A stretch of 64,000 bases of DNA from Oscillospiraceae bacterium (GTDB lineage Bacteria > Bacillota > Clostridia > Oscillospirales > CAG-272), in assembly GCA_015063325.1 (NCBI GenBank), contig SVUK01000014.1, positions 9,918 to 73,917 of the forward strand, in the 5' to 3' direction. Shown here one piece after another: positions 255 to 46,162 of this stretch (position 1 is its first letter; the number at the start of each line of letters is the position of its first letter). The position numbers and the translations under genes are program-made. Under the pieces are notes generated by a model. That model did not search any database, was not told the DNA's origin, and was given only the letters and a program-made list of their open reading frames with translations.

Positions 255-480
255 CCTCCTTTTATAAAGAGTTTTTTGCCGAGCTTTTTGAAGTTTTTGA
301 TCCAACTTTTTTCAAAAAGTTGGTCAGGGGGTGGGGTGAAACCCCACGACCTTCCTTCGCGCCGCAGGCGCGAACAAAAAGCGCCGAAGGTTCGCGCGGA
401 GCGCGAAATAAGGTCGTGGAGCGTTGCTCCACACCTCACCCACTTTTTTGGAAAAAAGTGGGGCAAAAAACTTTGATACT
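255..480. repeat. Intergenic palindromic repeat cluster C1 (two three-hairpin LSR units in inverted orientation)
   Basis: 262-378 reads TTGATCCAACTTTTTTCAAAAAGTTGG / GTGGGGTGAAACCCCAC / TTCGCGCCGCAGGCGCGAA. 384-478 carries the same three hairpin types in reverse order. The modules recur at 10 other loci in the window. Confidence 0.85.
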
Positions 481-496
481 TGGGGAAGCGGTTGGG

Positions 497-1357
497 TCAT
501 GCGCCGATGAGTGCGTCAAAGCCGAGGGCGCGATCCTGGTTGGAGGCAAGGGCAATGAGGTGGTTGGTTTGCCGTTTGCCATCGTCGTCGGTGATCCAGA
601 TTTCGTCGGGCAGAACGGCGGTCAGAAGCTCGGTTCCCAAAACGCTTGCCGAGGGGATCAGGCGCACCCGTTTCGCCGTTTGGTGGTCGTTCTCCATTTG
701 CAAACGAACGGGATCTCCTGGCGGCAAAAAAAATCCGTGGGGCAAAACGCCGCGCAGCGTTTTTGGTTCAACAAGAATGACCGGTCGCCCCGAAATCGGC
801 TCGGTGAGCAGGTTCCCGGTATCCACCAGCGCCTGAAATTCAACTTTTTTTCCAAACAGCACGGCTTCCACCGCCACTGATTTTGCCTTATTCGCCCTTC
901 CGATGGCGGCGCCTCCTTTGCGCGTCAGAATTCCGCTGACCAACGCGAGTACGGCGAACAGCCAAACCGAAATGTGATCCTCGGTCAGCGCGTCAATCGG
1001 CAAATTCAGCCGGTTGAGCGCCCAAAACAGTGCCGTCATAACGCCGCCGAGAAGCACCGAAATCAACAAAAACACTCCCACCGTTCGAACCGCCCTGGAA
1101 AATCGACCTGCGCGCCGCGCAAAAACCGCCGCGCAAATGACGCAGGCGCCGAACCCATCCAAAAGCAGTTCCCAAACGCCGCCGATTCCCAAAAGCAGTA
1201 CGGCGATTGCATAAAGTCCGCCAAGCGCCGCGCCGAGAAGCAGGCGCCATGCCTTTGGTTTGCTATGTAAGAGCAGCGCCGTCAGATTCAGGCAGAGCAA
1301 ATCCATACTGGCATTGACGAAAAAATAGAGATCGACGTAAACTTCTCCTTGCGGCAT
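497..1357 (-). CDS. spoIIGA: Sigma-E processing peptidase SpoIIGA
   Basis: ORF 497..1462 trimmed to the ATG at 1357 (MPQGEVYVDLYFF), with AGGAGG upstream. It has multiple N-terminal TM segments followed by the aspartic-protease motif LVDTGN. It sits directly upstream of sigE. Confidence 0.85.
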   Translation of the reverse strand: MPQGEVYVDLYFFVNASMDLLCLNLTALLLHSKPKAWRLLLGAALGGLYAIAVLLLGIGGVWELLLDGFGACVICAAVFARRAGRFSRAVRTVGVFLLISVLLGGVMTALFWALNRLNLPIDALTEDHISVWLFAVLALVSGILTRKGGAAIGRANKAKSVAVEAVLFGKKVEFQALVDTGNLLTEPISGRPVILVEPKTLRGVLPHGFFLPPGDPVRLQMENDHQTAKRVRLIPSASVLGTELLTAVLPDEIWITDDDGKRQTNHLIALASNQDRALGFDALIGA

Positions 1358-1536
1358 CGGCTGTCCTCCTTTTTTTGTATTTCCTCTTTCAGCATAACAG
1401 AAGAACAGCGATAAAGCTGTCGAAACCGAGGAACAAAAAAATTTTTCTTTTGCCGCTACCAATTCGGTCGTTTGTATGGTATAATAAGGAAAAAGAATCT
1501 AACCCCCTTGGCGCATTTCGCCGGAAAGGAAACAAG

Positions 1537-2625: not shown

Positions 2626-2661
2626 TCCCGTTTGACCGGGGTTTTTCAAAGGAGGACCGAC

Positions 2662-3396: not shown

Positions 3397-4561
3397 TCTT
3401 CTTCTCCTCTCCTTTTCCAAACAGGCGCTTGTCAAAGCCATGCTCTCCAAGCCGGGCGACAAGCGCGAACTCAAAACGGTTATCACACCGCGCGCGATCG
3501 GCGGAAAACTGCTTTTGCAGGCAGAAACCTTTCTTGCCGACAACAAGGCGGTGCACGAAAATATTGATCCCGAAAACAACTCCCGTCTCGCCGCACGGAT
3601 CGGCGCGCACGGGCAGATCAACCTCATCACTTCGGCAGGCGAATGTGAACTGCGGCGTTCCAAAGCCGGAAAAGTCACCCTCATCGGCGGCGAAAAATTG
3701 CGCCGTGCTCTTGCCGGGGAGGTTTTGCCGCGCATTCCGGTTGCCAAAAACGACCGTCAGAAAGCGCGCATTCTCTCGGGGAGCGAGCCCTTCCTGCGCC
3801 TGTTGGGCGTGAGCAATGAAAACGGGCGCGTTTTTGATAAAAAACAGGCGAAGTTCCGGCAGATCAACCGGTTTTTGGAACTGATCCGCGATTGTTTGCC
3901 CTACCTGCCGAAAGAGGGTGCGCTCCGCATTTGCGACCTCTGCTGCGGCAAAAGTTATCTTTCCTTTGCCGCGTATCACTATTTTGCAAACGTCCTTGGG
4001 CGCACCGTCCGCATGACCGGTGTGGACCTCAAGCCCGACGTGATGGAATTCTGCGCCGACGCGGCGAAAAAGCTCGGTTTTACCGGGCTGGAATTCCGCT
4101 TTGGCGATGTTGCCGCCTACGATGCCGGTGAGCATGTTCATCTCGTCCTTTCGCTCCATGCCTGCGATATTGCCACCGACCTCGTTCTTTCGCGCGCGGT
4201 GGCTTTCGGAGCAGACGTCATTCTTTCCACGCCCTGCTGTCATCACGAGCTCAACCACGCGCTGGACTGTCCTGCGCTCGGTTTTCTTTCGCAATACTCA
4301 ATGTTGCGGCAAAAATTCTGCGACGCCGCCACCGACGCGCTCCGGCTGAAATATTTGGAGGCCTGCGGCTATACCACCTGCGCGCTGGAACTGATCGACC
4401 CCGAGGAAACGCCCAAAAATATTCTTTTGCGCGGCGTCAGGCGCAAGGATTTTGACCCGTCGGGCGCCGAAGCGAAAGCCCTTTGGCAAGCCTATGAATC
4501 GGCAAAAACGTTTTTGGTAGGAGGCGGCAATGTTCAAAAAGCTCTTTCACAAAAATCCTAA
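3377..4561 (+). CDS. Class I SAM-dependent methyltransferase (function unknown)
   Basis: ORF 3368..4561. The ATG at 3377 is better spaced from AAGGAGG. It has the motif I-like ICDLCCGKSYLS and an HACD segment typical of Methyltransf_32-like proteins. Confidence 0.7.
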   Translation: METELLDLLLLSFSKQALVKAMLSKPGDKRELKTVITPRAIGGKLLLQAETFLADNKAVHENIDPENNSRLAARIGAHGQINLITSAGECELRRSKAGKVTLIGGEKLRRALAGEVLPRIPVAKNDRQKARILSGSEPFLRLLGVSNENGRVFDKKQAKFRQINRFLELIRDCLPYLPKEGALRICDLCCGKSYLSFAAYHYFANVLGRTVRMTGVDLKPDVMEFCADAAKKLGFTGLEFRFGDVAAYDAGEHVHLVLSLHACDIATDLVLSRAVAFGADVILSTPCCHHELNHALDCPALGFLSQYSMLRQKFCDAATDALRLKYLEACGYTTCALELIDPEETPKNILLRGVRRKDFDPSGAEAKALWQAYESAKTFLVGGGNVQKALSQKS

Positions 4562-4861: not shown

Positions 4862-4995
4862 GATTCGCGCGGAGCGCGAAGGAAGATAGCAAAAACTTTT
4901 TTTGAAAGTTTTTGATCCAACTTTTTACAAAAAGTTGGTAGGGTTTGGGACAAAGTCCCAAGGGTTTCCTTTCGCGCTCCGCGCGAACTTTCCAT
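4862..4995. repeat. Intergenic palindromic repeat cluster C2 (extra RC hairpin plus an LSR unit)
   Basis: TTCGCGCGGAGCGCGAA (4864-4880), TTGATCCAACTTTTTACAAAAAGTTGG (4912-4938), GGGTTTGGGACAAAGTCCCAAGGG, TTTCGCGCTCCGCGCGAAC. Confidence 0.85.
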
Positions 4996-5013
4996 ACTTT
5001 TTGATAAAAGGAG

Positions 5014-5808
5014 GTGTTTTCCGTGTCATTGCTGATCGACGAGCTGGACTTTGACGCCCGGCGCGCGCGGTTTTGCCGCATTGCCGAAGAAACGGCGATC
5101 GGCGCACGCACGCAGGGAGAATTCGGCTTTGGCACCTTGCAGGAAAAGCGCCTGCACGCAACCGTCAAAAAGTTTCTTTGCGAAAACACCGACTGCCACG
5201 AGGCAGGCATTGAGGGCACGCGCTACCTTGCCGATATACGCCTGGGCAACGAAATTTACGAGGTGCAGACCGGCGGATTTGCCCCCCTCAAACCAAAGCT
5301 GAAGCACATTTTAGAAAACACGTCCTGCACCGTAACGGTGGTGCACCCCCTTGTCGTTCAACGATCGATCTCCTGGATCGATCCGCGCGACGGCGCAATC
5401 TCCCCGGCACGCAGAACTTCCGGAATCGAACGCCCGATCGACCTGCTTGCCGAGCTTTATCCGCTCCTCGGTCTCTTGCCAAACGAACGGTTCGCCTTCC
5501 GCCTGCTCTCTGTTTCGGTCTGCGATTTTCGGCTCCTCAACCCCAAAAACCGGCGCGATCCAAAACGCCGTTCCAGCCGCTACGAGCGCATTCCAATCGA
5601 TCTTTTAGGCGACGTTACCTTTTCTTCACCTGCTGATTTCTACGATCTTTTACCCGGTGATCTGCCGAACGAATTTACCGTTTCCACATTCTCCAAATTG
5701 ACCGGACTGCGAGGGATTTCCGCGTATTCCGCGGTCCGCGTCCTGGCAAAACTCGGCGTCCTGCGCCAAACCTCTACCAAAAGACCCATGACCTTTGCGG
5801 TGGTATAG
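5014..5808 (+). CDS. Hypothetical protein, possibly restriction-endonuclease-like fold with a C-terminal wHTH-like tail
   Basis: ORF 5014..5808. The start is GTG at 5014 or, with better RBS spacing, GTG at 5023. The segment YLADIRLGNEIYEVQTGG resembles a PD-(D/E)xK-type core (D74, E83-x-Q85). The function assignment is weak. Confidence 0.6.
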   Translation: MFSVSLLIDELDFDARRARFCRIAEETAIGARTQGEFGFGTLQEKRLHATVKKFLCENTDCHEAGIEGTRYLADIRLGNEIYEVQTGGFAPLKPKLKHILENTSCTVTVVHPLVVQRSISWIDPRDGAISPARRTSGIERPIDLLAELYPLLGLLPNERFAFRLLSVSVCDFRLLNPKNRRDPKRRSSRYERIPIDLLGDVTFSSPADFYDLLPGDLPNEFTVSTFSKLTGLRGISAYSAVRVLAKLGVLRQTSTKRPMTFAVV

Positions 5809-5811
5809 GGG

Positions 5812-6090
5812 GGAGGGAAGACCTTGAGGGGGAGGAAACTTTTTTGCAAAAAAGTTTCCTCCCCCTCAAACTATCCTGTTGCGGTGCCCGAAAATCGCTA
5901 CGGGCGCATACGCGCTAATCCTTGCGCTTTTCGACCGCCGCCTGTGGCGGAAGCAGGGAGCGCGAGGAGTGGCAGCGGTCAAAATTTTGAAGCGGCAACG
6001 CCGCGCCACAAAATTTTGGGTACCGCAACAGGAGAGCGCGAGAGGGGGAAGAACTTTTTGCAAAAAGTTCTTCCCCCTCTCGCGACCTTT
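5812..6090. repeat. Intergenic palindromic repeat cluster C3 (GE hairpin, PQ composite, GE-type hairpin)
   Basis: A 46-nt perfect hairpin at 5824-5869. A PQ element at 5875-6032, bounded by inverted CCTGTTGCGGTGCCCGAAAAT / AAATTTTGGGTACCGCAACAGG. A hairpin GCGAGAGGGGGAAGAAC..GTTCTTCCCCCTCTCGC at 6038-6083. Confidence 0.85.
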
Positions 6091-6093
6091 TCC

Positions 6094-7767
6094 TTAAAAC
6101 AGCCCAACAATCTTTCCGTCGTCGGTGACGTCGATGCGTTCGGCGGCAGGAGATTTTGGCAGACCGGGCATCGTCATGATATCGCCGGTCAGGGCAACGA
6201 GGAAGCCTGCGCCTGCGCTGATTTTAACGTTTCGCACGGTGACGGTAAAGTTTTCCGGTGCGCCGAGCTTTTGCGGATCGTCGGAAAAGCTATACTGCGT
6301 TTTGGCAACGCAAACGGGCAGTTTTCCAAAACCGAGCGCGGTGAGTTCTTCCATCTGTTTTTTTGCCGCAGGCAGAATGGTCACGCCGGCGCCGCCGTAA
6401 ACCTTGGTGACAATGGCGTGCAGTTTTTCCTCAATGGTGGTGTCTTCCTCGTAGCTGAAGCGGAAATGATTTTCCGCGTCGCACAGACGGACGACCTCCT
6501 CGGCGAGCTCGGTTCCGCCTTTTCCGCCGTCCGCCCAAACGGTGGAGAGCTTGACGTTCACGCCCAGCGCGCGGCACTTTTGAATGACGAGCTCAATTTC
6601 CCTGTCGGTGTCGGTTGGAAAACGGTTAACGGCGACCACGCAGGGAAGCCCATAGGTGTTTTTGATATTGGAAACATGGCGCAAGAGATTTGGAAGTCCT
6701 TTTTCCAGCGCGACAAGATTCTCGGTTCCCAAATCGGTTTTAGCAAGACCGCCGTGCATTTTCAGCGCGCGAACGGTAGCAACGATCACCACCGCGTCGG
6801 GACGAAGACCTGCCATGCGACATTTGATATCCAAAAACTTTTCGGCGCCCAGGTCGGCTCCGAATCCCGCCTCGGTGACGGCGTAGTCGCCCAGTTTCAT
6901 CGCCATGCGCGTGGCGATCACCGAGTTACAGCCGTGGGCGATATTGGCAAACGGACCACCGTGCACGAACGCAGGGGTGCCCTCCAGCGTTTGGACGAGG
7001 TTGGGGTTGAGCGCGTCCTTGAGGAGCGCCGCCATCGCGCCGACGGCGTTCAGGTCACCGGCGGTCACCGGCTTGCCGGCATAGGTATAGCCGACCACGA
7101 TCCGCGAAAGCCGCGCTTTGAGATCGGAAATCGACGACGAAAGGCAGAACACCGCCATAATTTCGGAAGCAACGGTAATATCGAATCCGTCCTCGCGCGG
7201 CGTGCCGTTGGCTTTTCCGCCCAAACCGTCCACCAAGAAGCGGAGCTGACGATCGTTCATATCCACACAGCGTTTCCAGGTAATGCGACGGGGATCAATT
7301 CCGAGCGCATTGCCCTGCTGAATGTGGTTATCCAACATAGCGGCAAGCAGGTTATTTGCCGCGCCGATAGCATGAAAATCTCCGGTAAAATGCAGGTTGA
7401 TGTCCTCCATAGGAACCACCTGCGCGTATCCGCCGCCTGCGGCACCGCCCTTCACGCCGAAAACGGGACCCAAAGACGGCTCGCGGAGCGCCACGACCGA
7501 CCGCTTGCCAATGCGGCGCAATCCGTCGGCAAGACCGATGGTGGTGGTCGTTTTCCCCTCGCCTGCCGGCGTCGGCGTAATGGCAGTAACAAGAATTAAC
7601 TTGCCGTTTTTGCGGTTGGATGAGTCGATCAGAGCGCGGTTGACCTTTGCTTTATATTTGCCGTAGGATTCCAGAAAATCGTCGGGGATTTCCACCTTCG
7701 CGGCAATTTCGGAAATCGGACGGAGCTTGCAAGCCTGTGCAATTTCAATATCGGTTAAGTATGCCAT
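6094..7767 (-). CDS. fhs: Formate--tetrahydrofolate ligase
   Basis: 557 aa. The N-terminus [11 protein letters not shown], the P-loop TPAGEGKTT and full-length similarity to FTHFS are recognised by eye. Confidence 0.95.
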
Positions 7768-8438: not shown

Positions 8439-8741
8439 ATATCGGTACTCCTTTTCACCAATCAAAAATCAGGATTTGTCGTTCCAATTTTCAACATAGA
8501 TTTGATTTATTCAACAATTTTTTGGTCGATCAATTCATTCATCTCGTTTTTCTCCGTTCGACTTTGTTATTTATTATATCATGAAATGAAAAAAAGTCAA
8601 TGCGGCATAACAAATAATTGATTTATTATTGACAATTTTCCGGCAGATATGATAGAATACAAACAGCTATGATTGAACACAGACAGAAATGACTGAATTG
8701 TAGAATAAAGGACCATCAAAAAAGAAGGAACCCAAAGGAGA

Positions 8742-10010
8742 ATGTTTATGGAATCGATTTTTCAATCTGCCGATATTCTACTGCCCGATTTTAAAAAGAC
8801 CGACGGCACGCGCTGGGCGGTCGTTGCCTGCGACCAGTACACAAGCGACGCCGGGTATTGGAAAACCGCCGAAAATTTTGTTGGCGACGCGCCCTCGACC
8901 CTGCGGCTGATGCTGCCCGAAATCTATCTTGGCAAAGACGACGCAACTCGCATTGAAAAAATTCACGCCGAAATGAAAACCGCTCTGCAAACGGTTTTGC
9001 AAAGGCATTCCGACTGCATGATCTATCTGGAAAGACGTTTGGAAGGCGGTAAAGTGCGCCGCGGTCTGATTGGAAAAATCGACCTTGAAACCTACGATTA
9101 CAATAAAGGGTCAACCTCGCTCATCCGCGCCACCGAGGGCACCGTCCTGGAGCGCATTCCGCCGCGCGTTGCCGTTCGCCGCGGCGCGCCGCTCGAAATG
9201 CCGCATGTGCTTTTGCTGATTGACGATCCTGAGAGAACGGTGATTGAGCCGCTTTCCGGAAAGACAGCCGAAAAGCTTTACGATTTTGACCTGATGGCAG
9301 GCGGCGGACACGTTTGCGGTTATGCGCTTTCCAAAGACGAACAGGAAAAAGCCGTTCGCGCGCTTGCCGCGCTGAGCACGCCAGAAGTTATGAAGAAAAA
9401 ATACGGAAGCGCCGATCTTGCGCCGCTCCTTTTTGCGGTGGGCGACGGCAACCACTCGCTCGCTTCGGCAAAGGCATATTATGAGGAAATCAAAGCAAAA
9501 CTCGGTGCCGCCGCGCTTTCGCACCCAGCAAGATACGCTCTTTGCGAGGTCAACAATTTGCACGACGACGATTTGGAATTTGAACCGATCTACCGCGTGG
9601 TGTTCGGCGCAGACCCCAAAGACTTAACCGATTCCTTCCGTGCCGCCGTATCCAAACTTACCGGAGCCGCAAAGCCGCAAAGCGTGACCGTTCTTTGCGG
9701 AAAAGAGGAGGAAACCATCCAAATCCCGTCCCCCGAAAAACAGCTTCCTGTCGGAACGGTGCAGGCTTTTCTGGACGAGTATCTTGCTTCTCATCCCGGC
9801 GTGCGCGTCGACTATATTCACGGGACGGACGCCGTTCGCCGCCTTGTTGCGGAAAACGATGGAAACGCCGGATTTTTGTTTGCCGGCATGGAGAAGGACC
9901 AACTTTTCCGCACCGTTATGTTTGACGGCGCTCTGCCGCGCAAAACCTTTTCCATGGGACGCGCGCAGGATAAACGTTTCTATTTGGAATGCCGCAAAAT
10001 TGAAGCATAA
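8742..10010 (+). CDS. DUF1015 family protein
   Basis: 422 aa. The N-terminus (..ILLPDF...WAVVACDQYTSD) and the GDGNHSLA segment are typical of DUF1015. The ATG at 8748 may be the true start. A TTGACA/TGATAGAAT promoter-like pair lies about 100 nt upstream. Confidence 0.8.
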   Translation: MFMESIFQSADILLPDFKKTDGTRWAVVACDQYTSDAGYWKTAENFVGDAPSTLRLMLPEIYLGKDDATRIEKIHAEMKTALQTVLQRHSDCMIYLERRLEGGKVRRGLIGKIDLETYDYNKGSTSLIRATEGTVLERIPPRVAVRRGAPLEMPHVLLLIDDPERTVIEPLSGKTAEKLYDFDLMAGGGHVCGYALSKDEQEKAVRALAALSTPEVMKKKYGSADLAPLLFAVGDGNHSLASAKAYYEEIKAKLGAAALSHPARYALCEVNNLHDDDLEFEPIYRVVFGADPKDLTDSFRAAVSKLTGAAKPQSVTVLCGKEEETIQIPSPEKQLPVGTVQAFLDEYLASHPGVRVDYIHGTDAVRRLVAENDGNAGFLFAGMEKDQLFRTVMFDGALPRKTFSMGRAQDKRFYLECRKIEA

Positions 10011-10309: not shown

Positions 10310-10583
10310 GGCAAAAAGGCTCCTTTCGGGAAAAAATACGAGGGGGAAATGCCAAAAACGGAGATCGTCCGTCCCCCATAGCGGCGCAAAATCCGTCGGG
10401 AGTAGTGTATCCGAAAAGATCGGAAAACATACGAAAAACAAAATCGGAAACGGTTGGAAAAACCATTTCAAAAAAAGGATTCAAAAAGCGAAAAACGCTT
10501 GCCGACTTGCGCGTTTTGTCTTGACAAGAGAAAGAAGTTTTGGTATAATCTTTTTGTATGAAATTTACCGTGGAGGGAAGAAA

Positions 10584-13025: not shown

Positions 13026-13964
13026 ATGCGTATTTTATTTATGGGAACGCCGGATTTTGCCGTTTTTTCACTGCGTGCGTTGGTGGAAGCCGGCATGGAC
13101 GTGGTTGCCGTCGTTACGCAACCGGACCAGCCCAAAGGGCGCGGCTATGTGCTGACGCCGCCGCCGGTCAAGATTTTCGCGCAGGAGCATGGCATTCCCG
13201 TTTATCAACCCGTACGGCTCAAAAACGGCGAATTTGATGAAACGCTGGCAGAGATTGACCCCGAACTGATCGTTGTCACGGCGTACGGAAAGATTTTGCC
13301 CAAATCGCTGTTGGATTATCCGAAATACGGCTGCGTGAATGTTCACGGATCGCTCCTGCCCGAATACCGCGGCGCGGCGCCCATGCAGCGCGCCATTTTG
13401 GAGGGAAAGAAAGAAACCGGAATTACCACCATGCTGATGGACGAGGGATTAGACACCGGAAAAATGCTGTTACAGGTTCGCGTTCCGATTGAAGAAAACG
13501 ACAATTTTGAAACGATTCACAACAAAATGGGAGAAGCCGGAGCTCCCCTGTTGGTAAAAACCATTCAAGGGATTGCCGAGGGGAGCATTGCGCCGGTGGC
13601 GCAGGACGATTCCAAATCCACCTATGCCGCAAAAATCGAGAAAGCCGACTGCAAGATCGACTTTTCCAAACCGGCGCGCGAGGTGCATAATCGGATTCGC
13701 GCGCTTTCACCGGTTCCGCTTGCCTTTACGCACTTACCGGACGGCAAACTCTTAAAAGTGGTGGTGAGTGAACTTTCCGCCGAAAAATGGGAGCCGGCTC
13801 CTGCCGGAACAGTGATTTCGGTTACGGGCGGAGCGATTACGGTTGCCTGCGGCGAGGGTACGATACGGCTTTTGGAGCTGATTCCCGAGGGCAAATCGCG
13901 CATGAGCGCCGCCGCCTTCATCAACGGTCGCAAAATCGCTGTTGGAGACCGGCTGGGAAACTAA
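13026..13964 (+). CDS. fmt: Methionyl-tRNA formyltransferase
   Basis: ATG at 13026 follows GAAGGAGAA. Motifs seen: MRILFMGTPDFAV, NVHGSLLPEYRGAAP and MDEGLDTG. Confidence 0.9.
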   Translation: MRILFMGTPDFAVFSLRALVEAGMDVVAVVTQPDQPKGRGYVLTPPPVKIFAQEHGIPVYQPVRLKNGEFDETLAEIDPELIVVTAYGKILPKSLLDYPKYGCVNVHGSLLPEYRGAAPMQRAILEGKKETGITTMLMDEGLDTGKMLLQVRVPIEENDNFETIHNKMGEAGAPLLVKTIQGIAEGSIAPVAQDDSKSTYAAKIEKADCKIDFSKPAREVHNRIRALSPVPLAFTHLPDGKLLKVVVSELSAEKWEPAPAGTVISVTGGAITVACGEGTIRLLELIPEGKSRMSAAAFINGRKIAVGDRLGN

Positions 13965-13965
13965 A

Positions 13966-14268
13966 AGTTTTTGATCCAACTTTTTTCAAAAAGTTGGCGG
14001 AGTTTGAGGGGACGAGCGCGACTACCGCCCGTGGCGGAAGCAGGGAGCGCGAGGAGTGGCAGCGGTCGAAATTTCTGCGAGCAGCTATGCGAGCAAAAAG
14101 AAATTTCGGGCACCGCAACAGGAACGGAGCCTCAAGGTCTTTTTTCGCGCTCCGCGCGAACAAAAAGCACCGAAGGTTCGCGCCTTTGGCGCGAAGAAAG
14201 GTCGTGGGACTTTGTCCCACACCCTACCAGCTTTTTTGCAAAAAAGCTGGGCAAAAAACTTTATTAAA
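13966..14268. repeat. Intergenic palindromic repeat cluster C4 (L hairpin, PQ composite, inverted LSR unit)
   Basis: TTGATCCAACTTTTTTCAAAAAGTTGG at 13971-13997. PQ copy at 14007-14122. TTTTCGCGCTCCGCGCGAAC, TTCGCGCCTTTGGCGCGAA, GGTCGTGGGACTTTGTCCCACACC and CCAGCTTTTTTGCAAAAAAGCTGG up to 14268. Confidence 0.85.
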
Positions 14269-14279
14269 GGAGGGTGCGT

Positions 14280-18338: not shown

Positions 18339-18344
18339 AAAAAG

Positions 18345-18778
18345 AGAGAGGAAGACCTTGAGGGGGAGGAAACTTTTTTGCAAAAAAGTTTCCTCCCCCT
18401 CAAACTCCTCCTCTTTCAAAAAACTCCAACCAAGAGGGGTTGGAGTTTTTTTGAAAGTGACTTTCTGCACCGCTCCGAATGAGGAATGACAGAGAGCAAT
18501 ACTTTTTCAGTTCGACTGTTTTGATCAAACCTCACTCGGAGCAGAAAACAAAATCGTTTTCAAAAACTCCAACCTTTATTGGTTGGAGTTTTTGAAAAGG
18601 GAGGGGACGGGCGCGACCGCCGCCGGTGGCGGAAGCAGGGAGCGCGAGGAGTGGCTGCGGTCGAAAAGCGCAAGGATTAGCGCGGATGCGCCCGTAGCGA
18701 TTTTCGGGCACCGCAACAGGATGGCTTGGGGGAGGGAGAAACTTTTTCCAAAAAGTTTCTCCCTCCCCCAAGGTCTCC
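18345..18778. repeat. Intergenic palindromic repeat cluster C5
   Basis: GE hairpin at 18358-18403, identical to the 5824 and 39149 copies. AAAAACTCCAACC..GGTTGGAGTTTTT hairpins at 18418-18452 and 18562-18593. PQ copy at 18601-18720. GE-type hairpin at 18726-18772. Confidence 0.85.
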
Positions 18779-18780
18779 CC

Positions 18781-21039: not shown

Positions 21040-21545
21040 CACAAAAAAGAAAATCGCAACCGGTGGGGGAGGTGGAAAGACCTTGAGTTGGGGTGGGAGG
21101 CTTTTCTTGAAAGAAAATGCCTCCCACCCCCCTCTTAAATTCTCTTCCACCCACCAAAAAATTTTTAAAAAAAAGGAGAAAGAAATCGTTTTTGATTTTG
21201 CTTTTTGCAGATTTTATCAAGGGTGCTAAAGAAAACCACATTCAAAAATTCCCCCAAAATCCCCTTTTTAAAGTTCTTTCAGGGGGTGGGGACGAGCGCG
21301 ACCGCCGCCTGTGGCGGAAACAGGGAGCGCGAGGAGTGCAAATATTCGCTTTCGCGTAGCGAAACGCCGGTGTTCAGCCGGCGAGAATATTGCGTAGTGA
21401 GCCGTTTGCGGCGAACGTTGGCAGCAGGTCGAAATTTCTGCGAGCAGCAATGCGAGCAATAGAAATTTCGGGCACCGCAACAGGGTGGTGCAGGGGGAGG
21501 GGGACATTTTCTTTCAAGAAAAGTCCCCCTCCCCCTGCAGATTCT
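21040..21545. repeat. Intergenic palindromic repeat cluster C6
   Basis: GGGGTGGGAGGC..GCCTCCCACCCC hairpin at 21090-21130. An A/T-rich linker related to 34800-34925. The longest PQ copy at 21287-21484, carrying the 82-bp insert at 21339-21420. TGCAGGGGGAGGGGGAC..GTCCCCCTCCCCCTGCA hairpin at 21489-21539. Confidence 0.85.
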
Positions 21546-21562
21546 TCCCACATGTCCGGAGG

Positions 21563-22357: not shown

Positions 22358-22438
22358 AATAATTGCTCCTTTTCGGTATGAAAATTTCGGATAGCAAAGG
22401 ATTTTTGTCTCCGATCTCATTTTTTGCCGTTTGGCGCG

Positions 22439-22649: not shown

Positions 22650-22737
22650 TTGAAATTGTGTAATTTTCTTGGAAAAAACGAAAATCAGGCGCCGAAAACG
22701 GAAAAAATACCGAATGAGTGGGTTTTTGCCGCAGGCG

Positions 22738-34149: not shown

Positions 34150-34644
34150 ATGAAACTGACCGAAAAAGCGTCCTATATCAAAGGACTTGTGGAAGGCATG
34201 GAACTGGACACCACCACCAAAGAGGGAAAGGTGATTGCCGCGCTTCTCGACCTGACCGACGAACTGGCACAGGCGGTGACCGATATTCAGGAAGATATTG
34301 AGGAGATTGACAGCGACCTCCAGGAGCTCCAGGACTACGCCGAAGAATTGGACGACGACCTTGCCGACGTAGAGGATTACCTCTCGGGCGACGACGAAGA
34401 CGAAGAAGAGGACGACGAAGCGGAAGATTGGGACGACGGCGAGGACTGCGACGGCGACTGCGAAAATTGCAGCGGCTGCGACGATACCGACTACTACGAA
34501 ATCGTTTGCCCCTCCTGCGGCGAGACGGTTTGCTTTGACGAATCGCTCGATCCCGAAAATTTGACCTGCCCGGCTTGCGGCGAAAAATTCGGCTGCATTG
34601 TTGACGAGTCCGATTTCAAAAAGATCAGCAAAGACGAAGAATAA
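34150..34644 (+). CDS. Highly acidic protein with C-terminal CxxC..CxxC zinc ribbon
   Basis: 164 aa. It has a helical N-domain, a D/E-rich linker, and CPSCGETVCF...CPACGEKF. It resembles the CD1247 N-terminal domain family. Confidence 0.7.
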   Translation: MKLTEKASYIKGLVEGMELDTTTKEGKVIAALLDLTDELAQAVTDIQEDIEEIDSDLQELQDYAEELDDDLADVEDYLSGDDEDEEEDDEAEDWDDGEDCDGDCENCSGCDDTDYYEIVCPSCGETVCFDESLDPENLTCPACGEKFGCIVDESDFKKISKDEE

Positions 34645-34649
34645 AAAAA

Positions 34650-35065
34650 GATAGCAAGAGGGGAGAAACCTTTTTGAAAAAAGGGTTTCTCCCCTCGCGC
34701 ACTCTCCCCGCTTCTAATAATTTTCAGGGAGAAGGATATGCCGGGGGAGGTGGGCTTTTCCGAAAAGAAAATGCCCACCTCCCCCGGTATTCCCTCCGCC
34801 CAAAAGAAATCAAAAAAAGGTAAAAGGAACGCTTTTTTACGTCTGTTTTTTGTAAATTTCATCAAGGACGCTGAAGAAAAAACACTTTCAAAAACTTTAA
34901 AAAGGGGACTTTTTAAAGTTTTTGGAAAACGGTTTTCCGCACAGCTCCGGATAGGTTTTATTTTCAGCCTCTATTTATAAAGTTTTGATCCAACTTTTTC
35001 AAAAGTTGGTAGGGTGTGGGACAAAGTCCCACGACCTTATTTCGCGCCTTTGGCGCAAACCTTCC
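34650..35065. repeat. Intergenic palindromic repeat cluster C7 (GE, GE variant, linker, M2, LSR)
   Basis: Hairpins at 34658-34696 and 34741-34786. M2 module at about 34885-34975. LSR unit at 34970-35065. Confidence 0.85.
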
Positions 35066-35119
35066 TTGCTTTTTTTGCCGAACTGGAAGGGAATATTCTG
35101 TCACTTTCCACAAAATAAA

Positions 35120-35234
35120 GTTAGCAATTGCTAACCAATTTTGTGAAAAAAGACAAAATGTGAAAAAATAATGCAAAACAGTTGACAAAATGCAATTTGG
35201 GGCGTATAATTTGTTGTGGTTAGCAAAGGCTAAC
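35120..35234 (+). promoter_or_regulatory. feo promoter with two GTTAGC-N4-GCTAAC palindromes
   Basis: TTGACA at 35182-35187, a 17-nt spacer, and TATAAT at 35205-35210. Palindromes GTTAGCAATTGCTAAC (35120-35135) and GTTAGCAAAGGCTAAC (35219-35234) bracket it. Confidence 0.6.
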
Positions 35235-38406: not shown

Positions 38407-38583
38407 ATGTGGTCGTGGCTCGGTCAGAACATCGGTTGGCTTTTGGTGCTTGCCGGACTCATTGCGGTCGTTGCCGTGCTGGTCGTTCGCCTGATCCGCG
38501 AACGGAAGACGGGAAAATCCTGCGGCTGCGCCGGTTGCGCCGGCTGCGCCTATGCAAAAAACTGCCCTTCGAATAGGAAGTAG
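38407..38583 (+). CDS. FeoB-associated Cys-rich small membrane protein (58 aa, below the ORF-track cutoff)
   Basis: ATG at 38407 follows GAAGGAGGG. The product is MWSWLGQNIGWLLVLAGLIAVVAVLVVRLIRERKTGKSCGCAGCAGCAYAKNCPSNRK: one TM helix followed by CGCAGCAGC. Confidence 0.7.
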   Translation: MWSWLGQNIGWLLVLAGLIAVVAVLVVRLIRERKTGKSCGCAGCAGCAYAKNCPSNRK

Positions 38584-38587
38584 GAAG

Positions 38588-38640
38588 GCCGCGAGGGGGA
38601 GGAACCCTTTTTGAAAAAAGGGTTCCTCCCCCTCGCGCTC
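38588..38640. repeat. GE-type hairpin (cluster C8)
   Basis: GCGAGGGGGAGGAACCC-TTTTTGAAAAAA-GGGTTCCTCCCCCTCGC at 38591-38637. Confidence 0.85.
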
Positions 38641-38677
38641 CCTCTCTTCCAAAAAACTTTCAGAAAAGGAGATTTTT

Positions 38678-38941
38678 ATGGTTCAGACAACGGTAGGAAT
38701 TGACGGAATGATGTGCGGGATGTGCGAAGCGCACGTCAACGATTGTATTCGCGCCAATTTCGATATCAAAAGCGTAACATCATCGCATAAAAAGGGAGAG
38801 GCGGTTCTGCTTTCGGACAAGGCGCCGGAGGTCAGCCGCTTGCGCGAGGTACTGGGCAATCTCGGCTACACGGTGACCTCGGTGCACAGCGAGGAAGCAA
38901 AAGAGAAGAAAGGCTTTTTCGCCCGTCTGATGGGGAAATAA
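38678..38941 (+). CDS. Heavy-metal-associated (HMA) domain protein
   Basis: VGIDGMMCGMCEAHV carries the GMxCxxC motif. 87 aa. Confidence 0.8.
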   Translation: MVQTTVGIDGMMCGMCEAHVNDCIRANFDIKSVTSSHKKGEAVLLSDKAPEVSRLREVLGNLGYTVTSVHSEEAKEKKGFFARLMGK

Positions 38942-38944
38942 GCG

Positions 38945-39197
38945 CCTGTAAAATGCATGGAAGGTTCGCGCGAAGCGCGAAAAAAGACCTCGGGGTTTCA
39001 CCCCGAACCCGGACAACCTTTTTGAAAAAGGTTGATCAAAAACTTTATAAATAAGGGCTGAAAATAAACCCTATCCGAAGCAGTGCGGAAAGCCGCTTTT
39101 AAAAAAACTCCAACCTCTTTTGGTTGGAGTTTTTTGAAAGAGGGGGAGTTTGAGGGGGAGGAAACTTTTTTGCAAAAAAGTTTCCTCCCCCTCAAGG
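38945..39197. repeat. Intergenic palindromic repeat cluster C9 (inverted LSR, inverted M2, GE)
   Basis: GGTTCGCGCGAAGCGCGAA, CTCGGGGTTTCACCCCGA and GGACAACCTTTTTGAAAAAGGTTGATC. M2 inverted at about 39045-39140. GE hairpin at 39149-39195, identical to the 5824 and 18358 copies. Confidence 0.85.
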
Positions 39198-39199
39198 TC

Positions 39200-39553
39200 T
39201 TACCCTCTCTCTGCTGTCACGATCACATCTGCGCCGGTGTCCCGGAAGTTGGGGATAACGACGTCGCCGATATGGGTGGGCAGGGTAACGGTTGCGGCGT
39301 TGATCTCTTTCATGCAGTCGAAGATCAGCTCTTTTGGGATGGTTTTGCTGGTCTTGACCGGAACGGGATCGCCATTGGTGGCGCGCACGGTCGAAGTGAC
39401 GGTGCGCATGGGGTGGGTGCATTCATCGATGGCATATTGCTTGCCGCGTGGGCAGGCAAAGCCTTCAACGCTTTCAATTTTCCCGTCGGCGGTGAGTTCC
39501 GCTTTGAGCGAACAACCGCGCGGACAAACGATACAAGTCAATTCTCTCGTCAT
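39200..39553 (-). CDS. DUF1667 domain protein (third subunit of the glpA-like cluster)
   Basis: ORF trimmed to the ATG at 39553 (MTRELTCIVCPRGC). It has the Cys-rich N-terminus typical of DUF1667. Confidence 0.8.
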   Translation of the reverse strand: MTRELTCIVCPRGCSLKAELTADGKIESVEGFACPRGKQYAIDECTHPMRTVTSTVRATNGDPVPVKTSKTIPKELIFDCMKEINAATVTLPTHIGDVVIPNFRDTGADVIVTAERG

Positions 39554-42234: not shown

Positions 42235-42296
42235 TGTGTTTCTCCTTTTTACTCATTTTTGTTCAAATACTGTTTCCAAAGGATTGTTTACCTTAT

Positions 42297-42325
42297 ATTA
42301 TAATAAAATTCTCTGCTCCCGTCAA
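42297..42325 (-). promoter_or_regulatory. Candidate sigma-A promoter of the glpA-like operon
   Basis: On the minus strand: TTGACG (42325-42320), a 17-nt spacer, and TATAAT (42302-42297). The palindrome GCGCAAAATTTTGCG lies about 35 nt further upstream. Confidence 0.5.
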
Positions 42326-42399
42326 GTGCGGCGAAAAAGTTGAAAAACGCGCAAAATTTTGCGAAAAACGCGCAAGAATAAGCAACTTGGAACGGGGAA

Positions 42400-42845
42400 A
42401 GACATTGGGGGAGGGAGAAACTTTTTTCAAAAAGTTCTCCCCTCACCCAACCCCCCAACCCTGTTGCGGTACCCGGAAATCGCTGCGGGCGCATTCGCGC
42501 TGATCCGTGCGCTTTTCGACCTGCTGCCAACGTTCGCCGCAAACGGCTCACTACGCAATATTCTCGCCGGCTGAACACCGGCGTTTCGCTACGCGAAAGC
42601 GAATATTTGCACTCCTCGCGCTCCCTGCTTCCGCCGCAGGCGGCGGTCGCGCTCGTCCCCTTTTTAAAAAACTTCAAAAAGGGAACTTTTTGGAGTTTTT
42701 AAAATAGGCTTTCTGAACTGCTCCGAATCGGGTTTATTTTCAGTCTTTATTTATAAAGTTTTGATCCAACTTTTTCAAAAGTTGGTAGGGTGTGGGACAA
42801 AGTCCCGCGATCTTCTTTCGCGCCTTTGGCGCGAACTTTCCTTGC
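42400..42845. repeat. Intergenic palindromic repeat cluster C10 (GE variant, inverted PQ with insert, M2, LSR)
   Basis: Imperfect GE hairpin at 42406-42446. PQ at 42460-42660 on the minus strand, carrying the same 82-bp insert as the 21.3 kb copy. M2 at 42662-42755. LSR at 42750-42842. Confidence 0.85.
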
Positions 42846-42950
42846 TTCCTTTCACGCTTTTCTCATTTTATTTTTCATTTAAAGTAAAATTTATTCAAAT
42901 TATTCAAAGTAAAATCCGCTCGTTATTTTCAAAAAATTTCTCCAACCCTC

Positions 42951-43004
42951 TTGACAAATCAATTCCTGCGGAATATAATAACAGTTGAACAAGTGTTCAA
43001 CTGT
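42951..43004 (+). promoter_or_regulatory. arsR-family promoter plus 12-bp-arm inverted-repeat operator
   Basis: TTGACA at 42951-42956, a 17-nt spacer, and TATAAT at 42974-42979. It is followed immediately by ACAGTTGAACAAGTGTTCAACTGT (42981-43004), which resembles SmtB/CzrA-type operators. Confidence 0.65.
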
Positions 43005-43100
43005 TTAAGAAGAAAAATTAAATGATTCAAAAAGATTAATTGATTCCAAAAAGCTTCGTTTATTCAAGAAAATAATTGAATCAGAACAGGAGAGTTGAGT

Positions 43101-43514: not shown

Positions 43515-43710
43515 GTTTGGCTCCCTTGTGCAACATTTGCCCTCGGCAGACTTGCCTTATTGCCGCAGATATTGCCCATATTTGGCTCCCTTGTGCGCAA
43601 AGGGAGCTGGCGAGCTTGCTCGACTGAGGGATTGTTTTTCTAAATCATTTTTTTAACAACCCCTCACCCGCTATGCGGGAGCTCCCCTTACACAGGGGAG
43701 CCGCTCAAAA
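43515..43710. repeat. Second-family repeats (three units) between arsR and the HMA/ATPase genes
   Basis: GGCTCCCTTGTGCAACA.. (43519), GGCTCCCTTGTGCGCAAAGGGAGCTGGCGAGCTTGCTCGACTGAGGGATTG (43583-43637), and CAACCCCTCACCCGCTATGCGGGAGCTCCCCTTACACAGGGGAGCC (43657-43706). Confidence 0.8.
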
Positions 43711-43777
43711 AATCCCACAAGAACAACAAAAACTGATTTGCTGATAGACAAAAATTCACTTTTCAAGGAGACATGGT

Positions 43778-43996
43778 ATGAAAAAAACGTTTGCTTTGAT
43801 CGATCTGGACTGTGCGAACTGCGCCGCAAAAATGGAGCGCGCCATTGCAAAAATCGACGGCGTGAACGAGGTAACGGTCAGCTTCCTCGCCCAAAAGCTG
43901 GTGCTGGATGCCGACGACGCTCGTTTTGACGAGATTTTAGACGAAGTAATCGCAACGATCCGCAAAGTGGAACCCGACTGCCGTTTGAAAAAATGA
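43778..43996 (+). CDS. HMA domain protein (stand-alone N-terminal metal-binding domain)
   Basis: 72 aa. LDCANCAAKME carries the CxxC motif. Its stop overlaps the ATPase ATG as ATGA. Confidence 0.8.
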   Translation: MKKTFALIDLDCANCAAKMERAIAKIDGVNEVTVSFLAQKLVLDADDARFDEILDEVIATIRKVEPDCRLKK

Positions 43997-45879
43997 AACC
44001 GAAAAACCGTTTGACGCGTCGGCAAAAGAAAAATCTTTTTCGCATTCTGCTTGCCGGGGGACTGCTTGCCGTTTTGGAAATTCTGTGCCTGACGCATACC
44101 TTGCCAGACGTTTGGTATTGGCGGCTCCCCTTCTTCCTCATTCCCTATTTAGCGGTTGGTTTTGACGTGTTGCGCAAGTCGGTTTTGGGAATTGCGCATG
44201 GGCAGCTGCTGGATGAGAACTTTTTAATGTCGATTGCCACCATCGGGGCGCTCGCCATCGGCGAATATCCCGAGGCAGTTTTCGTCATGCTTTTCTATCA
44301 GGTTGGCGAACTTTTCCAAAACATTGCCGTGGGACGTTCGCGCAATTCGATTACCGAATTGATGGAGATTTGCCCCGAAACGGCGCGCGTGGAGCGCAAC
44401 GGCGAGGAGCAGGAGATCGATCCCGGCGAGGTTGCCGTCGGCGAGATCATCGTCATCCGTCCGGGTGAAAAAATTCCGCTGGACGGCGTGATTGTGGAGG
44501 GAAATTCCGCCCTAGACACCCGTTCGCTGACCGGCGAATCGCTCCCACGGGATGTTGCCCCCGGCGACGAAGTGATCAGCGGTTGCCTCAACGGCGAAGG
44601 ACTTTTGCGCGTGCGCGTGACAAAGCCGTTTGCCGATTCAACGGTATCGAAAATATTGGAATTGGTGGAGAATTCGACTGCGGCAAAATCGCGTGCCGAG
44701 GGAATGGTGACAAAATTCGCGCGCGTCTATACGCCTGTTGTCGTTGGGCTTGCCGCGCTCATCGCGCTCGTTCCTGCAATTGTCCATTGGATCAGTCCGG
44801 CAACATTGCCCGATGCAATGGGAATGGTCAAAACCGCGCTCATCTTTTTGGTGGTTTCCTGCCCCTGCGCGCTTGTCATTTCGGTGCCGCTTTCCTACTT
44901 TGCCGGAATTGGGAGCGCATCCAAACGCGGCATTTTGATCAAAGGGGCAAACGATTTGGAATCTCTTGCCAAGGTGGATACGATTGCTTTTGACAAAACC
45001 GGAACGCTGACCGAGGGGAGCTTTCAAGTCAGCGGAGTTTACCCGGTCGGAATGTCGGAGGATCAACTGCTTTTGCTTGCCGCGGCGGCGGAACAGCATT
45101 CCAATCATCCGGTTGCGCGTTCGATCGTTGCCGCCGCGCCGAAAAACGGGCTGATCGTCGTCGAAAATTTGGAGGAAATTCCGGGTCACGGAATGCGCGC
45201 AATGACCGAAGGGAAGGTCCTGCTCGTCGGCAATGCCCGACTGCTGATCCGCGAGGGCGTTTCGCTTCCAAACGACCAGTCAAAGACAATGGGAACGGTC
45301 GTTTTCCTCGCTTTGGACGGCATTTTCTGCGGTACGATTGTTGTTTCGGACGTCTGCAAACCAGAAGCCGCCGGATCGATCCGCGATCTGCGCGCGCTCG
45401 GTGTTCGACGGACCGTCATGCTTTCGGGCGACCGCGAACCAACGGCAAAAGCGGTTTGCGAGGCGCTTGGGCTGGACGAATACCGCGCCGACCTGCTCCC
45501 CGGCGATAAAGTTGCCGCCGCAGAAGCTCTGCTTGCCGAAAAGCAGGGAACCTTTGTTTACGTTGGCGACGGAACGAATGACGCGCCCGTTTTGGCGCGC
45601 GCCGACGTTGGCGTTGCTATGGGAGCTTTCGGCTCGGACGCCGCCATTGAAGCCGCCGACGTGGTCTTGATGGACGATTCGCTTGCCCGATTGCCGATCC
45701 TTTTGAAACTCGCCCGTAAAACCAGACGAATCGTTGTGCAAAACATTGTTTTTGCCATTTCCGTTAAAATTGCATTTCTTGTTTTCAATCTCTTTTTTCC
45801 AAACCTTTGGCTGGCAACGTTTGCCGATGTCGGCGTCGCTGTCCTCGCCATTCTCAACGCCTCAAGGGCAGGGAGATAG
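43993..45879 (+). CDS. Heavy-metal translocating P1B-type ATPase (Cd/Zn/Co-type)
   Basis: CPC in SCPCALVIS, the phosphorylation site DKTGTLT, HP in SNHPV, and GDGTNDAP. Confidence 0.9.
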   Translation: MKPKNRLTRRQKKNLFRILLAGGLLAVLEILCLTHTLPDVWYWRLPFFLIPYLAVGFDVLRKSVLGIAHGQLLDENFLMSIATIGALAIGEYPEAVFVMLFYQVGELFQNIAVGRSRNSITELMEICPETARVERNGEEQEIDPGEVAVGEIIVIRPGEKIPLDGVIVEGNSALDTRSLTGESLPRDVAPGDEVISGCLNGEGLLRVRVTKPFADSTVSKILELVENSTAAKSRAEGMVTKFARVYTPVVVGLAALIALVPAIVHWISPATLPDAMGMVKTALIFLVVSCPCALVISVPLSYFAGIGSASKRGILIKGANDLESLAKVDTIAFDKTGTLTEGSFQVSGVYPVGMSEDQLLLLAAAAEQHSNHPVARSIVAAAPKNGLIVVENLEEIPGHGMRAMTEGKVLLVGNARLLIREGVSLPNDQSKTMGTVVFLALDGIFCGTIVVSDVCKPEAAGSIRDLRALGVRRTVMLSGDREPTAKAVCEALGLDEYRADLLPGDKVAAAEALLAEKQGTFVYVGDGTNDAPVLARADVGVAMGAFGSDAAIEAADVVLMDDSLARLPILLKLARKTRRIVVQNIVFAISVKIAFLVFNLFFPNLWLATFADVGVAVLAILNASRAGR

Positions 45880-45884
45880 AGGAG

Positions 45885-46162
45885 AGGGGAAGGTTAGGCC
45901 GCGAGAGGGGAGGAACCTTTTTAGAAAAAAGGTTCCTCCCCTCTCGCGCTCTCCCCTCTTCCAAAAACTTTAAAAAGGGGACTTTTTCAAGTTTTTGAAA
46001 GCGGATTTCCGCACTGCTCCGGATAAGGTTTATTTTCAGCCCTTATTTATAAAGTTTTTTTGTCCAGCTTTTTTGCAACGCAAAAAGTTTCTTTTTTTCA
46101 AAAAAGAGGATAGGGTTCGGGGTGAAACCCCGAGGTCTTATTTCGCGCTTTGCGCGAATCTT
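45885..46162. repeat. Intergenic palindromic repeat cluster C11 (GE, M2, LSR variant)
   Basis: GCGAGAGGGGAGGAACC..GGTTCCTCCCCTCTCGC at 45901-45947. M2 at 45958-46045. An LSR variant ending in TTCGCGCTTTGCGCGAA at 46142-46158. Confidence 0.85.

Follow-up and report, generated by a model that had tools for sequence, protein, structure and literature searches.

The intergenic DNA of a 64,000-nucleotide (nt) stretch of contig SVUK01000014.1 from an Oscillospiraceae bacterium (here called the window) carries a mosaic of palindromic repeats built from four module types, GE, M2, LSR and PQ. These modules are multi-copy DNA elements that nest within one another and remain palindromic despite changing stem sequence. 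They form an uncatalogued family of the type of the repetitive extragenic palindromes (REP) and bacterial interspersed mosaic elements (BIME), and we think it probable that they represent a lineage-specific expansion of non-autonomous, mosaic, REP/BIME-like palindromic repeats at gene 3′ ends and within operons. The L hairpin of LSR stands out in being common to several phyla and to the introns of archaeal tRNA genes.

Judged from Pfam assignments, which include SpoIIGA followed by a sigma factor, FTHFS, Fmt-RsmB-RlmN-RsgA, FeoB and a P-type ATPase, the host is a spore-forming member of the Firmicutes with ~53% G+C, and its closest named relatives are uncultured metagenome-assembled genomes (MAGs) of Clostridia or Eubacteriales. 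Self-BLAST and repeat finding on the window recovered 11 module clusters, all between 261 and 46171, in line with the original prediction, made from the sequence of the window, of a mosaic in at least 11 intergenic regions; the GE, LSR and M2 copies that it had listed were all recovered, at most a few bases away. The clusters are as follows.

Clusters 1-6: 261-497, 4864-5003, 5805-6093, 13964-14285, 18343-18781, 21071-21576
Clusters 7-11: 34649-35159, 38573-38693, 38935-39276, 42368-42864, 45824-46171

By a curated gene map, they occupy 3.57 kb of the 7.64 kb of intergenic DNA in 1-46.2 kb; this is near the ~3.3 kb that had been predicted, but at 47% it falls short of the claim that they make up most of the non-coding DNA. 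As anticipated, no cluster breaks any Pfam-supported gene. The 38-nt GE core is present in three identical copies in the window, the L core in three copies and the R hairpin in six, and none of them found a match in 100 shuffles. There are 15 instances of a hallmark hairpin, built as stem, T-run, short loop, A-run and stem, all below 46 kb; shuffles contain none. The predicted absence from 46.2-64 kb was also borne out, since neither self-BLAST nor the hallmark-hairpin search found anything comparable there; spacers in that part are short with ordinary terminators, or belong to an island at 56-64 kb which holds none of the palindromic modules. Nor are the modules confined to the window, as the 3.9 kb of contig past its left edge has three further occupied spacers, and LSR, GE, M2 and PQ are all found in relatives.

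Each module has its own anatomy. GE is a near-perfect palindrome of 46-56 nt with G-rich/C-rich arms and an apex of T5-6 / A5-6; purine-rich/pyrimidine-rich flanks lengthen the hairpin to 25-35 bp, and as RNA it folds at -48 to -62 kcal/mol. GE is asymmetric in its outer flanks (GACCTTGAGG ... CCTCAAACTCC), and the GACC side points to the upstream gene in all three identical copies. The first hairpin of M2, an 8-10 bp stem between an A-run and a U-run, has the make-up of a bidirectional intrinsic terminator, and two smaller hairpins come after it. LSR consists of three short hairpins, L, S and R. The exact form of L is TTTTGATCCAACTTTTT(N)CAAAA(N)GTTGG, with a 5′ flank of AAAG-T(4-6)-GATC, while in other genomes S is a G-rich stem with a triloop and R reads TCG-N5-CGCA-N5′-CGA. 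PQ measures 120-210 nt, with ~20-nt inverted ends in one composite copy (5875-6032). When the modules were tested for a GC hairpin directly followed by a U-tract, as in intrinsic terminators, only the first M2 hairpin had this form, and GE and LSR failed. The copies in the window are listed below, with their strand or as unstranded.

285..382, +, LSR copy 1a: L at 302-323, then S, then R TTCGCGCCGCAGGCGCGAA; antisense to the spoIIGA-sigE operon, with its L end 33 nt from the sigE start codon
381..480, -, LSR copy 1b, inverted: forms a doublet with 1a around the spacer CAAAAAGCGCCGAAGG; sense to spoIIGA, beginning 13 nt past the spoIIGA stop codon
4864..4880, +, lone R hairpin TTCGCGCGGAGCGCGAA
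4900..4992, +, LSR copy 2, between two co-directional genes
5815..5876, +, GE: 38-nt core identical to the cores at 18362 and 39154; 7 nt past the stop of the DUF8091 gene
5875..6032, unstranded, PQ-type composite with ~20-nt terminal inverted repeats (CCTGTTGCGGTGCCCGAAAAT ... ATTTTGGGTACCGCAACAGG)
6033..6088, unstranded, GE with 28-nt arms, immediately past the fhs stop (minus strand)
13964..14160, +, LSR copy 4a: start overlaps the fmt stop codon; L at 13964-13997, S stem GGAGTTTGAGG / CCTCAAGGTC split by PQ at 14006-14125, R at 14144-14160
14168..14270, -, LSR copy 4b, inverted: L end adjoins the rsmB ribosome-binding site
18343..18418, +, GE, 5 nt past the rsgA stop; extended RNA hairpin of -52 kcal/mol
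18414..18600, unstranded, M2 variant: facing terminator-like hairpins at 18418-18451 and 18555-18600 around a central inverted repeat, each with an A-run, stem CTCCAACC and a U-run
18601..18722, -, PQ
18725..18772, unstranded, GE adjoining the MatE gene stop (minus strand)
21071..21140, unstranded, GE with core at 21090-21131
21140..21285, +, spacer module X, found again at 34800-34885 and on the contig beyond the left edge of the window
21286..21487, +, PQ, long version
21489..21540, unstranded, GE just past the M23 peptidase gene stop (minus strand), where the relative L130 has an ordinary terminator
34654..34700, unstranded, GE, 10 nt past the stop of the gene at 34150-34644
34730..34800, unstranded, GE, second of its cluster, with core at 34744-34785
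34880..34975, +, M2: terminator-like 5′ hairpin at 34886-34927, then two small hairpins
34974..35064, +, LSR copy 7
38582..38650, unstranded, GE past a small Cys-rich open reading frame (ORF; 38408-38575) downstream of feoB
38958..39050, -, LSR copy 9, inverted; sense to the minus-strand DUF1667 operon
39045..39146, -, M2, inverted, with a terminator-like hairpin at 39098-39139
39141..39210, -, GE immediately past the DUF1667 stop (minus strand)
42405..42450, unstranded, GE, imperfect copy
42455..42665, -, PQ, long version, inverted
42656..42755, +, M2
42750..42840, +, LSR copy 10
45885..45960, unstranded, GE, 6 nt past the P-type ATPase gene stop; -62 kcal/mol
45952..46045, +, M2
46035..46165, +, LSR copy 11, with the L hairpin diverged and duplicated

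Differing orders and orientations of the modules had been predicted, and both composites and inverted doublets are seen. The order GE-M2-LSR is found at 34.65-35.06 kb and 45.9 kb and, inverted, at 39.2-38.95 kb; with a PQ after GE (GE-PQ-M2-LSR) it recurs at 42.4 kb, making four occurrences, each running in the direction of the upstream gene. Other recurrent orders are GE ... PQ ... GE between gene ends and LSR-spacer-RSL doublets; the latter lie at 285-480 and 13964-14270 in the window and are also found at L126, L099 and L092 (L-numbers denote loci from other genomes, MAGs and metagenome contigs). Within the LSR at 13964-14160, a PQ is nested in the S hairpin. Several smaller observations concern the build of LSR. 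The S hairpin and GE have a common outer motif, GAGTTTGAGG ... CCTCAAGGTCTT (13998-14139 compared with L126:9800-9830, L054 and L111), by which S looks like a short GE without the T-run/A-run apex, and in L125, a viral contig, S by itself has been duplicated. The spacer at the doublet centre (CAAAAAGCRCCGAAGG; window 377-390 and 14161-14176) is inverted in the orthologous fmt-rsmB doublet of L126 (9857-9872), a difference that suggests that the DNA was inverted between the palindromic R hairpins on either side. Read in inverse orientation, the L flank (GATCAAAAACTTT) bears a candidate likeness to the core WATCAANNNNTTR of integration host factor (IHF).

The position of the modules relative to genes is far from even. 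Of the ~21 spacers in 1-46 kb that exceed 75 nt, 11 are occupied, and the predicted location of clusters just after stop codons holds for most of them, but not for 42368-42864, which lies between divergent genes. Four of the five divergent spacers are empty (1463-1602, 8439-8747, 10310-10583, 22421-22717), and only 42235-43094 holds a cluster. Both LSR doublets of the window are intra-operon, in the spoIIGA-sigE and fmt-rsmB spacers, and the outer L hairpin adjoins the ribosome-binding site of the next gene; these two spacers contain LSR (with the PQ insert at fmt-rsmB) and no M2. A lone GE is found in the short spacer upstream of the HMA gene, and a lone GE is also the sole element separating two convergent gene pairs. 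For ~120 LSR copies in other genomes, genes were called by a crude composition-based method that was ~85% correct on the window, and the counts of their contexts are therefore approximate: the gene adjoining the L end ran in the same direction in 58 cases and in the opposite direction in 21, and the context was divergent in 1 of 39 fully resolved cases. The L end lies 5-140 nt from the stop codon in these genomes. In antisense LSRs, it tends to lie just upstream of the next ribosome-binding site, as at sigE and rsmB here, at trpB in L065 and at a gene of Oligoflexales in L045. Within 2.5 kb of the LSRs in ~120 stretches, the only families to recur are ordinary housekeeping ones, and none of the ten checked in Pfam is a transposase or recombinase. 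The window itself was predicted to be free of transposases, and we found no Pfam transposase in 1-56 kb, while the 56-64 kb island encodes a serine recombinase and a MobL relaxase. Two further ideas on LSR context were discarded. An intrinsic terminator precedes LSR in L020, L048 and CAKQPE01, but at 9 of 83 copies this is no more than in controls. A promoter facing outward from the L end (TTGAAA, 17 nt, TATAAA) can be read in some copies of the window, but the flank is not conserved elsewhere and transcription would start within the ribosome-binding site.

That the stems change while staying paired is evident from 34 LSRs of other genomes, in which 97.7% of cells pair. Double-sided changes affect 13 pairs and 108 cells, compared with 29 cells in shuffles (0 of 500 reach the observed value), although the set was chosen for the R hairpin, which inflates the result for the R helix; S was not chosen. 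Pairing falls to 29-55% when partner columns are slid. G-T pairs constitute ~2% of pairs and are about as rare as A-C mismatches, a near absence that differs from typical structured RNAs. Such near-pure Watson-Crick stems fit palindromy kept in DNA, or very young copies.

Comparison with relatives reveals how quickly the repeats turn over. L129/L130 has an 83% identical RsmB and the same gene order, yet its fmt-rsmB gap measures 36 nt, its 15-nt rsgA/MatE gap holds a plain two-way terminator, another plain terminator follows M23, and its 21 kb contain no hallmark T-run/A-run hairpin; spacers of 15-160 nt there compare with clusters of up to 500 nt in the window. Empty sites or ordinary terminators in a relative with the same gene order mean that the repeats come and go. 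In L126 (RsmB also 83%), the fmt-rsmB doublet is present without PQ, and its L stems carry compensatory changes (CCAAC/GTTGG to CAAAC/GTTTG; CCAGC/GCTGG to CTCGC/GCGAG). L127 (90%) has a different GE past rsgA and its contig ends within repeats, while L099 has, at a non-orthologous locus, a doublet with 90% identity to window 286-430. In L118, PQ sits within the D-loop of two partial copies of tRNA-Ser. Gain, loss, replacement and nesting of repeats between relatives are thus all observed. The tRNA-Ser array of L118 has a further arrangement of its own (6533-7009), as the intact tRNA-Ser(TGA) at 6921-7009 is preceded by the two partial 5′-end copies in tandem, each interrupted by PQ, and the array sits downstream of a strong consensus promoter at ~6480-6508.

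How might such an expansion work? Once transcribed, the modules would punctuate messages, through termination, 3′-end protection and intercistronic hairpins; we infer this role from the terminator-like form of M2, the presence of GE at the terminator sites of relatives and the LSR doublets at sites of read-through. The first M2 hairpin could act as an ordinary two-way intrinsic terminator. GE occupies sites where relatives have two-way terminators and, as a very stable hairpin of 25-35 bp, may block 3′ exonucleases or end transcripts in a non-canonical manner. LSR triplets and doublets would permit read-through within operons, leaving the upstream message with stable hairpins at its 3′ end and the downstream message with them at its 5′ end. 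The copies, in turn, may spread and be homogenised as DNA, by a process that depends on the hairpins, probably acts on single strands and is supplied in trans. The Watson-Crick stems, AT-rich apexes, inverted doublets and conserved L flank point to spread through single-strand DNA, for which an enzyme of the Y1 HUH class is the obvious candidate, and AT-rich apexes would favour cruciform extrusion.

Several points weigh against a REP/BIME-like expansion of this kind, beginning with the approximate gene calls and the selected covariation set already described. LSR orientation is biased but not strict, as 21 of 79 copies are antisense. The sequence of L is constant across phyla beyond the needs of a simple hairpin, which argues for sequence-specific recognition by some factor. 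Neither GE nor LSR has the U-tract that marks a classical terminator, and each of the proposed RNA-level roles is read from position and folding. Finally, where filled sites of the window are compared with empty sites of L129/L130, the spacer is replaced, with neither clean insertion boundaries nor a target duplication, and the mobility of the repeats is accordingly deduced from their presence and absence.

Among known systems, the closest likeness is to REP, BIME and the REP doublets termed REPINs of Enterobacteria and Pseudomonas, which go together with RAYT transposases. Like these, the repeats are short, high-copy, extragenic and non-autonomous palindromes whose content differs between related species; they lie at gene 3′ ends and in operons and are rare in divergent promoter regions; they occur singly, as inverted doublets and in mosaics with linkers; and a short conserved motif stands beside the hairpin foot. 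They differ in having no sequence similarity to REP, with AAAG-T(4-6)-GATC as the flank in place of GTAG, in a host range of Clostridia plus other phyla, in comprising at least four unrelated modules (including near-perfect palindromes of 46-80 nt with a T-run/A-run apex and a three-hairpin unit) and in doublets whose halves are not mutually complementary. Moreover, REP sequences are species-specific, whereas the L hairpin is identical across phyla and domains. The pneumococcal BOX, RUP and SPRITE elements, compared by architecture only, are likewise modular with a fixed order, strongly folding, intergenic, non-coding and without a transposase of their own, in a Firmicute host, but here the modules are individually palindromic, invertible and nestable, and their distribution is wider than one genus. 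The earlier comparison to BIME and BOX mosaics therefore holds for architecture, while membership of either family is unsupported. With intrinsic terminators, the modules have in common the A-run, 8-10 bp stem and U-run of the first M2 hairpin and the placement of GE and M2 at the terminator sites of relatives; they differ in that GE has its T/A runs inside the hairpin apex and tails that are pyrimidine-rich rather than U-rich, that LSR has no U-tract and that the elements are repeated families, not unique hairpins. The palindrome-associated elements derived from IS200/IS605 (PATEs), Correia, ERIC and bcr1 elements are also small, non-coding and hairpin-rich, insert in other repeats and occur in Bacteria and Archaea. 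As against PATEs and miniature inverted-repeat transposable elements (MITEs), the repeats here have no parent insertion sequence (IS), no defined left and right ends and no demonstrated target sequence or duplication. A CRISPR array was discounted, the copies being irregularly spaced over kilobases in separate intergenic spacers, and integron attC sites, DnaA boxes, dif sites and the 16S rRNA 3′ end, compared by eye, fit only a few bases.

Searches of catalogues agree with the earlier statement that this is not a named repeat family. Against Rfam 15 at the gathering threshold, tRNA-Lys alone passes and no family matches the modules, and below the threshold GE has only non-specific matches to miRNA-hairpin models; literature searches by sequence and keyword found no description of the repeats. 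Beyond this genome, GE-like, M2 and PQ modules occur in the relatives L018, L063, L099, L118, L126, L127 and L131. The exact 27-nt L hairpin reaches much further, being present in at least 119 stretches of GTDB species representatives. Among the matches listed, its carriers are mostly Oscillospiraceae, Eubacteriales or Clostridia MAGs with many copies per genome, and the isolates Hominenteromicrobium mulieris CLA-AA-H250 and Acutalibacter caecimuris have it too. It is also present in two complete Oligoflexales chromosomes, OZ244057 and OZ245333, in the isolate Desulfatibacillum alkenivorans DSM 16219, and in one Cloacimonadota, one Anaerolineaceae and four Micrarchaeota MAGs. In the Micrarchaeota (L097, L121, L080, L009), it lies within long anticodon-loop introns of tRNA genes, that of L097 being tRNA-Val(GAC)-like, and in L097 and L121 the same intron holds a second hairpin of the same type plus a CCAAAAAC flank; ARAGORN in bacterial mode did not call these intron-bearing genes. 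One L hairpin match and no PQ match in viral contigs, together with no LSR match by BLAST against annotated plasmids and phages, argue that the repeats are not phage-borne. Two scans of metagenome contigs, for the M2-LSR junction and for the doublet centre, found none, in a collection that evidently does not contain the host organism.

From this distribution, we tentatively raise the possibility that the L unit (stem, T-run, short loop, A-run, stem, with flank GATCAAAAAC) is a hairpin element common to Bacteria and Archaea, which would form a multi-copy repeat between genes in Clostridia, Oligoflexales, Desulfatibacillum, Cloacimonadota and an Anaerolineaceae MAG and sit in tRNA introns of the four Micrarchaeota MAGs. 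If true, there would be a hairpin-specific mobilising activity that works in both domains, or a binding site for a common factor, and S, R, GE, M2 and PQ would be lineage-specific passengers.

A related explanation, also compatible with a REP/BIME-like expansion, is that the repeats are REPIN- or PATE-like elements moved by a Y1 HUH transposase of the RAYT (REP-associated tyrosine transposase) or IS200 TnpA type. On this view, the L hairpin with its conserved 5′ flank (AAAG-T5-GATC) is the recognition site, and what moves is the LSR/RSL doublet. We regard this as possible but doubtful. It would account for the inverted doublets in the window, L126, L099 and L092, for a conserved short motif 5′ of the hairpin foot, as GTAG in REP, for symmetric palindromy at the DNA level, for the bias in LSR orientation, and for the insertion of PQ after ...GG with no obvious target duplication. 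The occurrence of the L hairpin in both Bacteria and Archaea would suit it as well, given that the IS200 type is the sole subclass of this transposase family reported in both (PMC6006769). However, neither a RAYT gene nor any other Y1 protein was found in the window, none reached significance in ~0.9 Mb of loci by tblastn with two Y1 queries, which is a weak test, and no such gene is among the families recurring beside LSRs. In addition, the doublet halves differ in sequence, so the long hairpin of a REPIN cannot form, and copies in the window are oriented like the genes around them on either strand, not by a single direction of replication (for five single copies only).

A different view would take the modules as conserved structured RNAs, cis-regulatory or small, that are kept by selection on RNA folding and are not mobile DNA. 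The strong covariation of the S and R stems and the sense bias of copies downstream of genes would agree with this, as would the occupation of equivalent sites in distant relatives (fmt-rsmB in L063; past the P-type ATPase gene in L020 and L048). Nevertheless, we consider it unlikely: Rfam has no match, hundreds of copies adjoin unrelated housekeeping genes in both orientations and as inverted doublets, G-U pairs are no commoner than A-C mismatches, sites are empty in the relative with 83% identical RsmB, and near-identical copies stand at non-orthologous loci.

Two other origins have still less in their favour. Classical MITEs, as deletion derivatives of a DDE-transposase IS with terminal inverted repeats and target-site duplications, are brought to mind by the ~20-nt inverted ends of the PQ composite at 5875-6032, by the nesting of PQ in other modules and in partial tRNA-Ser copies, and by a separate inverted-end element at 33065-33357. 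This origin is quite improbable for the mosaic as a whole, in which LSR, GE and M2 have no terminal inverted repeats beyond their own hairpins, the order of modules varies, filled and empty sites show no target duplication, and neither the window, the 3.9 kb beyond it nor the recurrent LSR-neighbour families hold a parent element or transposase. We give similarly little credence to ordinary terminators or spacer hairpins that evolved in place and were homogenised by gene conversion without transposition. GE and M2 do stand at terminator positions, and quasipalindrome correction, in which within-strand template switching keeps palindromes perfect without selection, could maintain them. Yet an origin in place sits poorly with three identical 38-nt GE cores and four GE-M2-LSR composites at unrelated loci, with an identical 27-nt L hairpin in several phyla, with clusters reaching 500 nt where a relative has 15-160 nt, and with PQ nested in other modules.

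An assembly artefact or chimera can be dismissed: although the contigs of relatives break at the repeats, which do disturb assembly, up to 17.8 kb of the window, four clusters included, is reproduced at 99.97-100% in five independent assemblies (JGI, Logan, ENA). As to those breaks, contigs of relatives start or stop in LSR or GE (L127:1-71 and 4090-4130; L126:1-360 and 13968-14165), and the closest RsmB homologues are mostly on contigs of only 1.6-14 kb. It seems that short-read assembly in this clade breaks up at the repeats.

Mosaics of the REP/BIME type are known from textbooks for Proteobacteria and pneumococci, and our findings extend the phenomenon to the Oscillospiraceae and Clostridia, for which no comparable system was found in Rfam or the literature searched. 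Oscillospiraceae and related Clostridia dominate gut, rumen and digester communities, and there is a practical side, in that repeats filling about half of the intergenic DNA here break the metagenome assemblies of relatives. Their replacement of ordinary terminators at some sites bears on how transcripts end in the host lineage, and stems that co-vary and are still near-pure Watson-Crick offer a useful case for how DNA palindromes are maintained.

Some neighbouring features of the window are also worth recording. A separate, MITE-resembling family is represented at 33065-33357, with inverted ends of ~50 nt (CAATCCCTCAGTCG...GGGAGCC) around an AT-rich core of ~200 nt; a solo end lies at 43581-43637, and L038 has a 30-nt match. 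Between the divergent M23 peptidase gene and ABC transporter operon, 22738-22812 consists of five tandem 15-nt units (GCAAATTTATAAAAG), which lie at, or slightly within, the start of the longest ORF for the ABC gene. The island at 56000-64000, with 44-47% G+C, is probably an integrated mobilisable element: its large serine recombinase ORF (60124-61839, minus strand) runs at the 3′ end into the tRNA-Lys gene (60118-60193), and its MobL-type relaxase lies at 62603-63823. Lastly, two operator-like palindromes were noted, AAAGTTAGCAATTGCTAACCAATTT upstream of feoA/feoB (35105-35135) and AACAGTTGAACAAGTGTTCAACTGTT (42950-43006) upstream of the P-type ATPase operon, the latter just past a consensus promoter (TTGACA, 17 nt, TATAAT).

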